IMG/VR virus record: IMGVR_UViG_2531839662_000020
Length of the DNA: 12,646 nucleotides
Strand: one strand, 5' to 3'
Source of the DNA: a virus
Taxonomy: Duplodnaviria; Heunggongvirae; Uroviricota; Caudoviricetes
The translations under genes were made by a program, and so were the position numbers. The notes under the pieces were generated by a model. That model worked only from the letters and a program-made list of their open reading frames with translations, had not been told where the DNA came from and made no database searches. Positions 3,484 to 12,340 of the stretch are shown one piece after another; position 1 is the stretch's first letter, and every line of letters starts with the position of its first letter.

Positions 3484-3771
3484 GTTCTCTTTTCGCCCAA
3501 TTATTTTCAAAAAAAATCCCGTGCACAAAAATTTGAGGAGGCGGTCGGTGTCCGGCAGGGACGGTTTTGTCCTGAAAACCTCCCCCACCCCCTCTGACGG
3601 CCTCACCAGCGATTGCGAAAACATTCCATGACCTCGCGGTCACGGTCGGTTAATTGCTTCGCTGTGGTGCGTTCTGTGCGCCCTGTCCTGTTGGCTTTGT
3701 GCCCTGTCTCCTGTGTCTTCCATAAGTCACGCTGCCTTATCAGTCCACGTATCAGCCTGTTTTGCTCCTGT
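3484..3771. other. Candidate cos / terminase recognition region (HNH-TerS intergenic)
   Basis: 288-bp non-coding gap between the HNH gene and terS, the position cos occupies in HK97-like phages. Contains two 15-bp direct repeats (3676-3690 and 3698-3714), a C-rich tract at 3578-3600 and an A-tract at 3509-3530. Cut site not determinable from sequence. Confidence 0.3.
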
Positions 3772-8027: not shown

Positions 8028-8560
8028 GTATCCCCCTTTGCTGCCCGGCGCTGGCGCTTGTGCTTCTCATTCAGCGCCATCAGCCGCGTTTCTGCCTCCT
8101 GCTGTTCCTGTGGTGTCACTTCCCCACATGGCTGGCCTTTCAGGTCGTATCGTACCCCACCAGCAACCAGGGCGCGGTAATAGCGCGGAGACTGCGCATA
8201 AGATGCCAGCGTCGCACGTAATGCCCCCGGCCCGAATGCCAGCCCCCTGACGGCGAGATCCTGCATCAGGTCGTCGAATATCCCCACCTTAAGCGGCTTC
8301 GGTGCTTCCCTGTTGAATAAGTCAGGCCACATCTCAGTGAGGCGGTTAACGCGCCTGCGGTTTTTGCGCTGGCGTTTGGTCATATGCCGCCACGGTGTCA
8401 CCCCTGTGGGCTGCCCTTTGCGGCTCTGCTGTGCGTTCTGATTGCCGGGTATCACTTTATGCGCCGATGTGGTTTTATCCCGCTCTTGCGCCGCCTGCGT
8501 CGTTTTCTGCGGCGTGCCGTAAATGCCTTTCGGTTTTCGGTTAATGGTCAGCTTTGTCAT
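8018..8560 (-). CDS. ProQ/FinO-domain RNA-binding protein with basic N-terminal extension
   Basis: C-terminal two-thirds (WPDLFNREAPKPLKVGIFDDL...LRATLASYAQSPRYYRALVAGGVRYDLKGQPCGEVTPQEQQEA) matches the ProQ/FinO N-terminal domain pattern recalled from E. coli ProQ. N-terminal about 70 aa is Lys/Arg/Gln-rich. AGGGGAAGG RBS. Confidence 0.75.
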   Translation of the reverse strand: MTKLTINRKPKGIYGTPQKTTQAAQERDKTTSAHKVIPGNQNAQQSRKGQPTGVTPWRHMTKRQRKNRRRVNRLTEMWPDLFNREAPKPLKVGIFDDLMQDLAVRGLAFGPGALRATLASYAQSPRYYRALVAGGVRYDLKGQPCGEVTPQEQQEAETRLMALNEKHKRQRRAAKGDTCQ

Positions 8561-8596
8561 GCCTTCCCCTGTAATTACTCTGTTCGCTGTTGTGAA

Positions 8597-9022
8597 TTAA
8601 AACGGTATGTTATCCCCGTACAGGTCATCGTGCTGGCCTGTCTGTTGTTTTGCCCTGTTCAGTGCGTCAGTGGCCTGCCCCTGTTGGCCTTTTTTGCCGC
8701 CCGGTCGCGCCGTTCTCGCACTGATTACGCTGTCTGCGATGACCTGCCAGCCCTGCCGCGTTTCGCCGTTCTGCCCTGTCCACTGGCTTACCTGCATGTT
8801 ACCCGCCACGTTCACCAGTTCGCCTTTGCGGTGTTTTGCCAGTGCGTCGGCCTGTCTGCCAAACGCCAGGACGGATAACCACATCGTCGCCGTTCCGTCA
8901 TCTGCCTGGCTGCATGGCAGGGGAACCGCCATACTCGCCATCGCCATTTGTGTTCCCTTGCTGGTGGTCTTTAACTGCGGGTCAGCCACCAGCCGCCCGT
9001 AAGCCGCTATCTGTGCTGTCAT
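8597..9022 (-). CDS. ssb: Single-stranded DNA-binding protein (SSB)
   Basis: 141 aa. OB-fold-like N-terminal region (GRLVADPQLK...), Gly/Gln-rich linker, and acidic C-terminal tail DDLYGDNIPF resembling the SSB DDDIPF tip. Confidence 0.8.
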   Translation of the reverse strand: MTAQIAAYGRLVADPQLKTTSKGTQMAMASMAVPLPCSQADDGTATMWLSVLAFGRQADALAKHRKGELVNVAGNMQVSQWTGQNGETRQGWQVIADSVISARTARPGGKKGQQGQATDALNRAKQQTGQHDDLYGDNIPF

Positions 9023-9085
9023 GCTGTCTGCTCTCCGGTTTTAACGTTGATGGTTACGCTTGTTTACACCCTTACGGTGAAATTC

Positions 9086-9219
9086 TGCGGGTTATAATCG
9101 CACTTTTGCGGGTTATAACTGCCGTTTTGCGGGTTACGTGCGGGTTATTGATTTCCTTTTTATTCATACAGTTAATGCACTTATATACATGATAACCCGC
9201 ATAACCCGCATAACCCGCA
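9086..9219. repeat. Iteron cluster A: 4 direct TGCGGGTTA(T/C) repeats (spacing 21/21/11 bp), AT-rich spacer, 3 tandem inverted ATAACCCGC
   Basis: Direct copies at 9086-9095, 9107-9116, 9128-9137 and 9139-9148. AT-rich stretch 9149-9191. Inverted tandem copies across 9192-9219. Lies in the 220-bp gap between the primase-helicase stop and ssb start. Confidence 0.75.
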
Positions 9220-9241
9220 ACTTTTCACCTCACACAGGGGG

Positions 9242-11365
9242 TTAATCTTCTGCCTCAGGCTGGAACATCAGCACGTAAAAAACATGCTGCTTCCCCCCAA
9301 TTTTGCCGAGCGCCTTTTTCTTGTAACGGCGATCGTTACCCGCTTCCAGCATTCCGGCAGCACTCAACGCGCGGGCAAAGTGAGACGGATTAAATCCCTG
9401 TGCTATCTCACCCTCAAATACATGCGGGAACGTGTAAAAACGGAACTCGTCATCTTCGTTTCTGATACTCCCCTTTCTGTATCCGGCAAGTTCTTTAATC
9501 GGTAAATCACGCTCGTCGGTATTGGGCCACGGAAGGTATCTGCTGAATCCGAACGACGCTAAAAAAGCTTCTGCCTGTTCAACCATCTGTTTAAATTCCC
9601 TGTTACCCGTGCCGAACTCCTTCACCCAGGCATTAAAATTATGCTGTATGGCATCGCGGCATTCCTGCTCATCCCAGCCAGTAACATGACCTGAAAGCAC
9701 AAGCGCGGCCTCCAGTATGGCAAATCGCTCCCCCACACGGTGAACCTGTTCGCCGTAGCTCTCCGGTATCAGGTTGCGCCACCGCTCACGGCATGTCCTT
9801 ACCGTGTCCTTTGCCTCCTGCTGGTGTTCTGCCAGCCATTTAACCCACTCACGACCCGCCGCCCCGTGATTTTCTGTCCAGGCATCCTTTAACGCGTCTG
9901 CGTGCGCCTTTCCGGTGCTGTATTCGTGAAATTGCGTGGCTTTTTCCATCGGAACGTTAAGCAGGCGGACAAGCTGCCCCGCTTTGACTTTTATCCCCTC
10001 CGTTTTGAGGAATGTCTCAACGTCCATTTCTCCGGTGCTGATTGCCACCGTGCGCCAGTGTTTGATCTCCCTGTTGCCGCCGTCCTTCGCCCCCTGTAAT
10101 TTCCCCGAACCGTTAAACAGCGTATAGGCTGACGTGGACACCTCCCGCGCGTTTCCGGCCTGGCCTATTTCATCCAGGGGTAAAAGCCCGTCATTGTGTG
10201 CCTCTGCTTCGTTGGCGATACCTAACGCTGTGCCGTACCAGGTCAGCCGCTGCGCGTCCGGCTCTCCCCATAAACTTGATGCGATGTTCTGTGTGGTGGT
10301 TTTCCCTGCCGATGACTGTTCGAAAAGATGTACCCCGAAGCCGTCAGCGCCCACCAGCCCGATTAATGGTGCGGATAACGATACCGCCACACCCAGCATC
10401 ATGGACGGATTACCACCAGCCAGCCGCGCAACGATATCGCGCCAGCCCTCCGCCGTTCCTGCCACGGAATAGCCATTAACAGCAGCCGTTTTTCCGGTAA
10501 ACAGGACTGGCTTTTCGCAATCACCAATGACCGAACCGTCCGGCATGATGTACGCGCCAAAATGCCAGCCCGTTGTTGTGCTTAACTGCCATTCCTCATG
10601 GCTTCCGCTTAACTGCATCCAGTCAGCCAGGATAGCCCTGTATTTACCGTTGGTTGTTACGTTCAGTCCGTGGTCTTTCAGCAACCGCCAGCCGTCACGG
10701 TCGCCAATGCCACCGCACGGAACCGCCATTGTGATGACTTCATGGTTTGCTAATTTTTTCCAGCGCATCACGCGGTAATGCTCTTTACCGATTGTCCCCG
10801 TTCCCAGTAGTTCAAGCGGGGAACATAACCACGTCTCAGGCCGGATAATTTCGCCTGACTGCTTATCCACTTTTGGCGTTACCCAGAAAACACCATCGGC
10901 GCGACTTTCAACGCGGGGCTTTAATTCATCATCGCCCTGGATTTCTGTGATTTTTTTCTTTAAGGGCAACACCAGACTTTCCCCGCGCTCGTATTCGTCT
11001 TTGAGGCGAGGCAACTGGTCGGATAAATCCGCCGGGCTGATGTCAGTTATCCCCGCGTATTCGTATACGGTCTTCACGCCAGCCACAGCCAGCAACGTGA
11101 CGATCTGTGTAAGGCTACGTTCAGTGATGTGCCCTGCGCGGTAAACACGCACACACTGACGGCTATCATCAATAATTTGATAACCGGTAATATCTTTCAG
11201 GTGTTCATCTGACAGAACGACAGGCGGCACATTGTCGGCGGCAATATGCTTACCTGCCCATTCCTGCCACTCTTTCGCATGGCTCCACGCATCACTACCC
11301 GCAAAGATGATAACCTCCGTCATTTTGTCGGCTGGCTGGTGCTTTAAGTTTGGTGCGCGCTTCAT
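9242..11365 (-). CDS. Replicative primase-helicase (toprim-like N-terminus, P-loop NTPase core; DUF927-like)
   Basis: 707 aa. Walker A-like SSAGKTTT in the central region. Overall resemblance to satellite and prophage primase/helicase replication proteins. ATGA overlap with the upstream small gene. Followed by iterons. Confidence 0.8.
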   Translation of the reverse strand: MKRAPNLKHQPADKMTEVIIFAGSDAWSHAKEWQEWAGKHIAADNVPPVVLSDEHLKDITGYQIIDDSRQCVRVYRAGHITERSLTQIVTLLAVAGVKTVYEYAGITDISPADLSDQLPRLKDEYERGESLVLPLKKKITEIQGDDELKPRVESRADGVFWVTPKVDKQSGEIIRPETWLCSPLELLGTGTIGKEHYRVMRWKKLANHEVITMAVPCGGIGDRDGWRLLKDHGLNVTTNGKYRAILADWMQLSGSHEEWQLSTTTGWHFGAYIMPDGSVIGDCEKPVLFTGKTAAVNGYSVAGTAEGWRDIVARLAGGNPSMMLGVAVSLSAPLIGLVGADGFGVHLFEQSSAGKTTTQNIASSLWGEPDAQRLTWYGTALGIANEAEAHNDGLLPLDEIGQAGNAREVSTSAYTLFNGSGKLQGAKDGGNREIKHWRTVAISTGEMDVETFLKTEGIKVKAGQLVRLLNVPMEKATQFHEYSTGKAHADALKDAWTENHGAAGREWVKWLAEHQQEAKDTVRTCRERWRNLIPESYGEQVHRVGERFAILEAALVLSGHVTGWDEQECRDAIQHNFNAWVKEFGTGNREFKQMVEQAEAFLASFGFSRYLPWPNTDERDLPIKELAGYRKGSIRNEDDEFRFYTFPHVFEGEIAQGFNPSHFARALSAAGMLEAGNDRRYKKKALGKIGGKQHVFYVLMFQPEAED

Positions 11366-11676
11366 TTTGCCTTTCCCCGTTCACGAATAATTTCACGTAC
11401 TGCCTTAATGCGTTCCATTCCTGTAACGCGCATGATTCTGTCGATGTCGCTTAATTCTGCTGGTGGTGCTTTACTTACCAAGGTGAACTCCCTGTCAAAG
11501 CGCATATGTGACGACACGCAGGGATGCGCATAACCTTCGCGGATATAGGTCACACGAAAATCATCGACGGTTTTGATCGTTATCGTGCTGCCGTATTTAT
11601 CCTGGAAAATATCGCCGGGGCGGATTTCAGGCCGAGCGGGGCCGCTGGCAGTAAAGCCAGAATTTTTCTTTTTCAT
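11362..11676 (-). CDS. Hypothetical protein, 104 aa
   Basis: ATG with GGAG upstream. Stop overlaps the primase-helicase start (ATGA). Basic C-terminus. No family confidently recognised. Confidence 0.55.
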   Translation of the reverse strand: MKKKNSGFTASGPARPEIRPGDIFQDKYGSTITIKTVDDFRVTYIREGYAHPCVSSHMRFDREFTLVSKAPPAELSDIDRIMRVTGMERIKAVREIIRERGKAK

Positions 11677-11900: not shown

Positions 11901-12252
11901 AATCGCCCCCGCCATTTTCACAATCAGCAATCAGGATGGCTTTTGCCTCATTCAGCGCCATATCAGCACTAAATTGCATAACAGCCAGTGAGTGAGGAAC
12001 GAAAGCCCCGGCATATTCTGTTTCGCTGGTGGCCTCAATGGTAATCACACGCGGTTGTGCCGTGCTCAGGGCGATAAAACGCCAGATGTATTTATTCAGG
12101 TTGTGCAAGTCCCGCCCTTGCGGGTGTGTGGTATGATTTAACATAGCTACCTCGATAATCTTGCTATCGTTGGTGGTTAGAAGCCCGGTTAGTGTTAGCG
12201 CACTGCCGGGTTTCGTCGTTTGTATTTCAATAAAACCATTGGTGTGTTTCAT
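11890..12252 (-). CDS. Hypothetical protein, 120 aa, first gene of the early operon (alternative start at 12144 gives 84 aa)
   Basis: 3' portion of the 247-aa track ORF. The part upstream of 12252 is antisense to the plus-strand gene and low-complexity, so is rejected. ATG at 12252 lacks an SD; the ATG at 12144 has GAGGT 5 nt upstream. Confidence 0.45.
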   Translation of the reverse strand: MKHTNGFIEIQTTKPGSALTLTGLLTTNDSKIIEVAMLNHTTHPQGRDLHNLNKYIWRFIALSTAQPRVITIEATSETEYAGAFVPHSLAVMQFSADMALNEAKAILIADCENGGGDYAK

Positions 12253-12340
12253 GTTATTTTGGAGTGAAACACACGTCAAGCCTTTTTTGTATTTCTTTTT
12301 TGTGTATACTGAAACACACCAAATTTGAGGAGTTTCAGTT
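12241..12340. promoter_or_regulatory. Divergent control region with three copies of TGAAACACAC(C/G)
   Basis: Copies at 12241-12251 (inverted, overlapping the ATG at 12252), 12264-12274 and 12310-12320. The first two form an 11-bp-arm inverted repeat with a 13-bp spacer. Plus-strand -10-like TATACT at 12305-12310 and GAGGAG RBS at 12326-12331. Confidence 0.5.

Follow-up and report, generated by a model that had tools for sequence, protein, structure and literature searches.

A probable PICI-type replication origin module and its mirror-image second copy in a capsid-forming satellite island of Escherichia coli

Introduction

In phage-inducible chromosomal islands (PICIs), the gene for the replication initiator has the replication origin immediately on its 3′ side (Fillol-Salom et al., 2018; PMC6092414). 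In the SaPIs, the Rep proteins are self-loading helicases whose C-terminal winged helix recognises short iterons situated just downstream of rep (Qiao et al., 2022; PMC9371898), and the origin itself is built around an AT-rich centre that is flanked on either side by two or more iterons, oriented oppositely to those across the centre (PMC9371898). Capsid-forming PICIs (cf-PICIs) are, by the published criteria, islands of about 10–18 kb that carry an integrase, a replication module and a packaging module of their own (capsid, protease, portal, connector, HNH, TerS and TerL) and that have no tail or lysis genes; the published descriptions of cf-PICIs do not discuss the origin. The satellite phage P4 has a bipartite origin, ori plus crr, to which the alpha primase-helicase binds. 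In its GenBank record (NC_001609), from which we read the layout, crr directly follows the alpha gene on the 3′ side and is composed of two repeats of 120 bp; each of these has a tandem pair of type-1 repeats, an A/T-rich gap, an inverted and spaced pair, and a further single copy.

Here we compare with these systems a repeat element found in a 12,646-nucleotide stretch of viral DNA (Caudoviricetes; IMG/VR record IMGVR_UViG_2531839662_000020), which is referred to below, at its full length, as the window. The original prediction, made from the letters of the window, was that positions 9086–9219 are an iteron-type origin that is probably bound by the replication protein encoded next to it.

Results

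The window holds most of a cf-PICI

Judged by its gene content, by the existence of near-identical islands that bear an integrase and by its homology to EcCIEDL933, the window is most of a cf-PICI of E. coli and a relative of that island. Capsid, protease, portal, TerS, TerL, SSB and ProQ were identified by Pfam, PHROGs and NCBIfam, and by these searches the island has the published cf-PICI features, the integrase being seen in the copies of the island in E. coli EC416 and UMNF18. Both of these near-identical islands carry a tyrosine integrase at the far end. When compared to EcCIEDL933, the prototype cf-PICI, the window is 70–93% similar over the replication and packaging genes.

All long genes are on the − strand, and transcription runs from high to low window coordinates. 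In this direction, an Icd-like or repressor-like region and a DUF4222 gene are followed by the gene for a 707-aa DUF927 protein (hereafter Rep; 9242–11365, − strand) and by the repeat element at 9086–9219 (module 1); next come SSB, a ProQ/FinO protein and an 82-aa ORF, then an HK97-type capsid, the prohead protease and the portal, and finally the head-tail connector (a name taken from the annotated island of EC416, which is 99.5% identical), HNH, a P27-family TerS and TerL. The ssb gene, which codes for an island-encoded single-strand DNA-binding protein (8597–9022, − strand; Pfam SSB, 7.9e-16; TIGR00621), is directly downstream of module 1 and on the same strand as the Rep gene.

The near-identical island of EC416 sits inside a prophage terL, and that of UMNF18 between the thiM leader and rcnR. 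In EC416 (locus L001, 5636–6379 and 22324–23358) the island splits the terminase large-subunit gene of the resident prophage in two, meaning that a satellite has inactivated a phage packaging gene. The junction of the island in the window falls inside the TPP riboswitch leader of thiM (1–95), a stretch that is 100% identical to the thiM leader region in more than 5,000 E. coli genomes; an Rfam scan, which gave no matches in the window, made no call for the truncated riboswitch at this position. A segment of about 850 bp that runs from the second repeat cluster described below (module 2) to terL (631–1479) is absent from the otherwise 99.5% identical EC416 island. It holds a 94-aa ORF (1192–1476), is shared in part with EDL933 and contains a 19-bp inverted repeat, TTTCCACCGTTGGTGGAAA, at 918–936 and 1030–1048. 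At the other end of the window, in the regulatory region (12242–12319), GTGTGTTTCA forms a small cluster in both orientations at 12242, 12265 and 12310, and EC416 has a different repeat, GTGTAAGAC, in its place; these clusters are probably operator sites of the island's regulator. EcCIEDL933 (locus L002, 2178–2557) has four copies of yet another repeat, GCGGTAACT, spaced 100–140 bp apart beyond terL and unrelated to the origin iterons.

We also located two cos-like sequences. The first, AAAAATTTGACGGGGCGGGCGGT, lies near the island end at 374–396, about 80 bp outside module 2, and the surrounding 362–399 matches the cos region annotated in phage phiP27 at 97% identity, with a 10-nt core at about 385–394. 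The second, AAAAATTTGAGGAGGCGGTCGGT, is at 3527–3549 between HNH and terS, which is the location of cos in phiP27. With two such sequences, the island may carry its own cos as well as a helper-type cos.

Two opposed iteron arrays flank an AT-rich spacer 3′ of the Rep gene

Module 1 takes up most of the 219-bp gap between ssb (8597–9022) and the Rep gene (9242–11365); the element had been placed in exactly this gap by the original prediction. On the ssb side is a spaced iteron array (9086–9147, + strand) with four exact copies of TGCGGGTTA at 9086, 9107, 9128 and 9139, that is, at spacings of 21, 21 and 11 bp. On the Rep-gene side is a tandem iteron array (9193–9219, − strand) with three exact head-to-tail copies at 9193, 9202 and 9211 (9-bp period), which faces the other way from the spaced array and comes within 23 bp of the stop codon. 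The four direct and three tandem inverted copies that had been read from the sequence at the outset were therefore all recovered. The spaced copies share an extended consensus of about 13 bp, (T)TTTGCGGGTTAT. Between the two arrays is a spacer (9148–9192) with 75.6% A+T, versus 48% for the whole window, and the third most AT-rich 40-mer of the window falls inside it; the AT-rich stretch foreseen here was confirmed in composition and corrected in length, from 40 to 45 bp. This spacer is presumed to be the site of melting and helicase loading, a role that we take over from the SaPI origins (PMC9371898).

TGCGGGTTA occurs in 11 exact copies in the window as opposed to 0.06 ± 0.23 expected (200 dinucleotide-preserving shuffles), which excludes a chance origin of the repeats. 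When up to one mismatch is allowed there are 16 copies, versus 2.9 ± 1.7 by chance. We also weighed, and dropped, the one-mismatch copies at 706, 8976 and 11424 as possible outlying iterons, their number being that expected by chance. Within module 1, the iteron positions are better conserved than the rest of the module (89% vs 75%).

In layout as well as in position, the element agrees with the published PICI origin (PMC6092414): opposed iterons, an AT-rich centre and a location just 3′ of rep, which are the points of the published PICI/SaPI definition, are each found here. One-mismatch DnaA boxes are not above chance in the window (15 vs 9.5 ± 2.9), and a search of the full-text literature for the iteron strings returned unrelated primer matches only. 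A 20-nt inverted repeat bounds module 1 (9076–9095 and 9210–9229) and is not kept in EDL933. In many of the loci surveyed below, irrespective of iteron class, a conserved palindromic motif, CACATGTG(AGG), lies in the interval that separates the stop codon of Rep from the nearest tandem iteron; at 9222–9238 the window carries a variant of this palindrome, reading CCTGTGTGAGG on the Rep-gene strand and CCTCACACAGG on the + strand.

Rep is homologous to the SaPIbov1 and SCCmec helicases

A Pfam search of Rep found DUF927 as the only family (5.8e-46). By sequence (phmmer), Rep matched 8tch (4e-15), which is the SaPIbov1 initiation-of-replication protein with helicase activity according to the fold-search description, and 5dgk, the SCCmec Cch protein (1.7e-3). 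A Foldseek search with the full-length AlphaFold model returned the same two structures (5dgk, 5e-8; 8tch, 6e-7; probability 1.0) and no other significant matches. By sequence and predicted fold, Rep is thus a DUF927 helicase of the SaPI-Rep/Cch type, homologous to SaPIbov1 Rep and SCCmec Cch. The model, made from 50 sequences, has a mean pLDDT of 60; its N-terminal and DUF927 parts are good and its ATPase core and C-terminal domain have pLDDT values below 50, a quality that is enough for the Cch/SaPIbov1 Rep fold match and too low to call a winged helix.

We divide the protein into an N-terminal alpha/beta domain (residues 1 to ~130), the DUF927 helicase (~150–600) and a C-terminal specificity domain (~602–707, encoded at 9245–9562). 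AlphaFold prediction of the C-terminal 119 aa alone with 17 aligned alleles reached a pLDDT of 43 and was unusable. Against the Pfam family HTH_56, "Cch helix turn helix", the C-terminal domain scored 20.3 bits, below the cut-off of 26.2, with 6 of 17 alleles matching, and a PDB profile search with the alignment of this domain gave chance matches only.

The protein had been named a primase-helicase in the original prediction. The second half of this name stands on the DUF927 assignment and the homology to SaPIbov1 Rep and Cch; the first half is not supported, as no primase domain was detected in Rep. The N-terminal ~130 residues form a confidently modelled alpha/beta domain with a weak likeness to the DnaG RNA-polymerase domain (E 0.26). 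Since the helicase homology is clear and a primase domain was not detected, "Rep initiator-helicase" is the name that is supported. The N-terminal domain is mosaic at the DNA level (10970–11365, residues 1 to ~130): its DNA is 85% identical to the start of "DUF5906" or "DNA primase family" genes in other E. coli, and many Rep homologues align only from residue ~146 onward. When placed by eye, the Rep sequence IIFAGSDAW sits at the position of the EGYATA primase motif of P4 alpha, with Ala in place of the catalytic Glu, and is a candidate counterpart of that motif.

Iterons change together with the C-terminal domain of Rep

For a survey of related loci, we fetched 80 loci from GTDB genomes via an alignment of Rep homologues and added three E. 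coli islands, giving 83 loci; three of these had too little sequence 3′ of the Rep gene and were dropped, which left 80, the window included. The fetched loci belong to the Enterobacterales, except for one Pasteurellaceae locus and one contig labelled Chryseobacterium. Iterons were searched for as the most repeated 9-mer in the 450 bp after the Rep stop codon, and the whole locus was then scanned with the result.

An equivalent iteron cluster was present in 76 of the 80 loci, with a median distance of 26 bp from the Rep stop codon to its start. Outward from the gene, the cluster consists of 2–7 tandem copies, an AT-rich gap of 40–50 bp and 3–5 opposed copies about 21 bp apart, a layout that holds for all related loci inspected for it; the tandem copy number is two in EC416 and EDL933 and seven in L071. 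The sequence of the repeat itself differs by lineage. We distinguished about ten iteron classes by lineage, each paired with a distinct sequence of the last ~75–105 residues of Rep (for example TGCGGGTTA, AGTGGGTTA, ACGGGTTAT, TGAACCAAC, TGGGACAAG and TGGGATAAG, and further GAGACAACA, CGGGATAAC, TGACACACT and AAACCGAC), and discrete C-terminal alleles are visible in the alignment of Rep homologues.

A Mantel test on 71 loci gave a Spearman rho of 0.70 between iteron distance and C-terminal-domain distance, a value reached by none of 2000 permutations, compared to a correlation of 0.51 between iteron distance and helicase-core distance in the same loci. The partial correlation of the iterons with the C-terminal domain, given the core, was 0.56, and that with the core, given the C-terminal domain, was −0.08. 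In two loci, L003 and L004, the change can be seen between otherwise 85–94% identical islands: in blastn comparisons with the window, 8055–9044 is homologous (85%), 9045–9562 is not, and 9563–11367 is homologous again (94%). Their Rep is 95% identical to that of the window in the core and 32% identical in the C-terminal domain, and their iteron is CTTGTCCCA in place of TGCGGGTTA. The gap between homologous flanks indicates that the C-terminal domain and module 1 have been exchanged as a unit, in one specificity cassette of about 500 bp (9045–9562). Together, these comparisons are strong correlative evidence that the iterons are read by the C-terminal domain of Rep (~105 aa) and not by the helicase core, with the reservation that the co-variation is partly confounded by linkage, since domain and origin are adjacent and inherited together.

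Four lines of comparison support reading the element as an iteron origin to which the neighbouring replication protein binds: the homology of Rep, the match to the published architecture and position, the recurrence of the cluster in 76 of 80 loci, and the co-variation and cassette swap of the C-terminal domain. On this sequence-based evidence we conclude that 9086–9219 is very probably the Rep-proximal module of a PICI-type replication origin of an E. coli cf-PICI.

A mirror-image module lies beside the cos-like site

A second cluster, at 475–629, had escaped the earlier reading; it comprises four exact and two one-mismatch copies of the same repeat. Its tandem array (475–500, + strand) has TGCGGGTTA at 475 and 484 and the one-mismatch copy AGCGGGTTA at 492, and is kept in EC416 (L001, 6653–6678) and in EDL933 (L002, 10811–10837). 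It is followed by an AT-rich spacer (501–577; 77 bp, 72.7% A+T), within which are the 40-mer with the highest A+T content in the window (position 517, 85%) and, at 533–545, the only match to the IHF consensus near either module, one that is not conserved in EDL933. The spaced array (578–629, − strand) has TGCGGGTTA at 578 and 599 and the one-mismatch copy TGTGGGTTA at 621, at spacings of 21 and 22 bp. Module 2 is therefore a mirror image of module 1 (inverted-repeat pairs I1, I2, I4, I5 and I15), and the two modules are about 8.4–8.5 kb apart with their tandem arrays outward and their spaced arrays inward, toward the intervening DNA. A terminator-like hairpin at the end of the packaging operon (628–652, − strand) overlaps the third spaced iteron of module 2 with its T-tail.

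The existence of two modules raises the question of which of them is the start of synthesis, given that in P4 the cluster 3′ of the helicase gene is crr and not the start site. If the P4 division of labour applied, 9086–9219 would be a crr-equivalent, cis-acting enhancer and synthesis would start at 475–629, next to cos. P4 crr does lie directly 3′ of alpha, with an origin bearing the same repeats 4.7 kb off, and module 2 is the one that has the longer spacer with the most AT-rich 40-mer, an extra conserved motif (the TA-box, below) and the IHF-consensus site. Rep, however, is homologous to SaPI Rep, for which the gene-proximal cluster is the experimentally defined origin, and shows no similarity to P4 alpha that we could detect; cloned together with its adjacent origin, the rep gene of EcCICFT073 was enough for plasmid maintenance (PMC6092414); and in 26 loci the proximal module is the only one within 10 kb. 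By this comparison with P4 and the SaPIs, we regard a start of synthesis at module 2 with an enhancer at module 1 as improbable and keep module 1 as the probable origin module, even if the P4 analogy cautions that synthesis might begin elsewhere.

The position of module 2 varies among the 76 loci with a cluster. In 33 of them, EDL933 included (L002, 10811–10958 and 11002–11126), the two modules are directly side by side, in 17 the second cluster is 0.2–9 kb off, and in the remaining 26 a single module is seen within the 10-kb flank, for which reason module 2 may be dispensable. A tandem array on the opposite strand was found downstream in 39 of 72 loci. Such a variable position, and the mismatch carried by 2 of the 6 copies in the window, would be expected of a non-functional, drifting relic, that is, of a duplicated origin half that was moved by recombination when the packaging genes were acquired. 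The repeats themselves speak otherwise. The iterons of module 2 match those of module 1 in every lineage examined, among them in the window, in EC416, in EDL933 and also in L003, where both modules use CTTGTCCCA (GTCCCA-type) while the flank of module 2, GAATGCAATTTTTCGTATATATATACAAAAC, is still 95% identical to that of the window; in L003 the C-terminal domain, module 1 and module 2 have thus changed together. Moreover, the iteron positions in module 2 are better conserved than the rest, the spacer included (81% vs 62% and 96% vs 85%), and both the TA-box and the mirror-image layout persist from one iteron class or genus to another. The joint change with the C-terminal domain and the better conservation of the iteron positions make a drifting relic unlikely, and the same sequence comparisons lead us to favour, by a little over an even chance, module 2 as a working partner site. 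It could be a second origin, an enhancer like crr, a control site or a promoter under the control of Rep.

The motif that we call the TA-box (446–474; GCAATTTTTCTTATATATATACAAAACAG) is on the outer side of module 2, beyond its tandem array, and keeps a fixed distance to the iterons; it is 95% identical in L003 despite the different iterons there. In the form TTTTGnTTATATATA(C)AAAA (446–472 in the window; also in L001, L002 and L003), it is found 7–20 bp beyond the tandem array in 34 of the 39 loci, and in 29 of the 39 an ORF starts within 170 bp of it on the same strand. As a gene start usually follows, the TA-box resembles the −10 element of a promoter whose −35 position is taken by Rep sites; the motif at 446–474 may be such a −10-like element or an auxiliary unwinding element. 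These promoter-like features bear on whether the repeats are mainly transcriptional operators, through which Rep or another island regulator would control ssb and the downstream operon without any part in initiation. Iteron-binding initiators commonly autoregulate, as in the iteron plasmids. Against this, the TA-box of the window points at the cos-like site and the island end, with no ORF of at least 45 aa within 170 bp on the same strand, and module 1 lies 3′ of Rep inside an apparent single transcription unit. Opposed iterons around an AT-rich core are, furthermore, the experimentally verified layout of a PICI/SaPI origin, and the operator reading is weakened further by the finding of no sigma-70-like promoter or terminator in 8900–9400, around module 1. 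We therefore give operators without initiation very little credence; a regulatory role could exist alongside the origin function of module 1.

Discussion

From the comparisons above we infer how Rep would bind, how the DNA would melt and replication would fire, and what part module 2 would play; the order of events would be as follows. After induction by a helper phage and excision of the island, Rep would read the 9-bp iterons through its C-terminal ~105-aa domain and would assemble on both opposed sets of module 1, namely the three tandem copies by the gene and the four copies beyond, about two helical turns apart. The 45-bp spacer between the sets would then melt, the Rep helicase would load itself, and host primase and polymerase would take over, with SSB supplied by the ssb gene just downstream. 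Module 2, beside cos, may be bound by the same C-terminal domain as a partner site, where it could either offer Rep a further place to load or act in cis in the manner of P4 crr.

In a broader and more tentative proposal, to which we give somewhat less than an even chance, the origin of this enterobacterial satellite-island family would be inherently bipartite, with two mirror-image Rep-binding modules, the distal one being a working partner. The modules would stand side by side or be separated by up to 9 kb of inserted cargo, which in this window would be the whole capsid and packaging operon. If so, the distal module would be a partner as crr is for P4, by way of a helicase family unrelated to P4 alpha; the Rep site and TA-box beside cos would possibly couple replication, late transcription and packaging; and the matched exchange of the C-terminal domain with both modules would be a natural recognition code of about ten alleles.

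Module 1 probably belongs to an already known kind of origin, and its mirror-image second copy is the less expected part. By itself, the result puts a probable origin on the map of a cf-PICI, a class of satellite described only recently, which is useful but expected. What merits following up is the second, mirror-image module, along with the table that matches C-terminal alleles to iterons. The roughly ten matched pairs of Rep C-terminal allele and iteron, near-isogenic swaps included, are a system for studying how self-loading helicases read DNA, and can also be used to predict replication incompatibility between co-resident islands. A conserved second module of variable position makes a P4-like two-site origin in PICIs an answerable question, and there is a hint that the gap between the modules is a place where cargo is inserted, up to a whole capsid operon.

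When compared to the iteron plasmids (pSC101, R6K, RK2, P1 and others), the locus shares the repeated initiator sites beside an AT-rich unwinding element, and extra iteron clusters elsewhere on those replicons can act in control through handcuffing. The plasmids differ in having direct repeats of 17–22 bp that are bound by RepA-type winged-helix proteins, DnaA boxes and loading of host DnaB, whereas the initiator here is itself a helicase, the 9-bp repeats are in both orientations and DnaA boxes are not enriched. We considered the iteron-plasmid class of origin and set it aside for this element, the repeats being 9–13 bp long and in both orientations, with a perfect DnaA box absent from both modules.

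The PICI/SaPI origins (SaPIbov1, SaPI1, SaPI5 and EcCICFT073) are similar in having a homologous initiator, an origin immediately 3′ of rep, opposed short iterons around an AT-rich centre and specificity that lies in the C-terminal region of Rep, and they too belong to phage-satellite islands. Here, unlike there, the iterons are 9 bp long (13 bp in the spaced copies) instead of 5–6 bp, the two sets differ in layout, being tandem at 9 bp and spaced at 21 bp, and there is a second, mirror-image module, of which the openly readable PICI/SaPI texts make no mention.

In this last respect, the locus resembles P4 with its ori and crr. Both have one short repeat that forms two clusters, several kilobases from each other, and in both the helicase gene is directly followed by one of these clusters. 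A cluster has, in both, an A/T-rich stretch surrounded by tandem copies (9–10 bp period) and by spaced copies that are inverted; P4, too, is a satellite packaged by cos, in the range of ~11–16 kb. The two differ in the orientation of their parts: the two 120-bp repeats of crr are direct, and the modules here are mirror images of each other. Membership of Rep in the P4 alpha family was examined and ruled out (best BLASTP E 0.067; Pfam DUF927 and not the P4-type domains). With no detectable similarity between alpha and Rep, the likeness to P4 is one of functional analogy and not of family membership.
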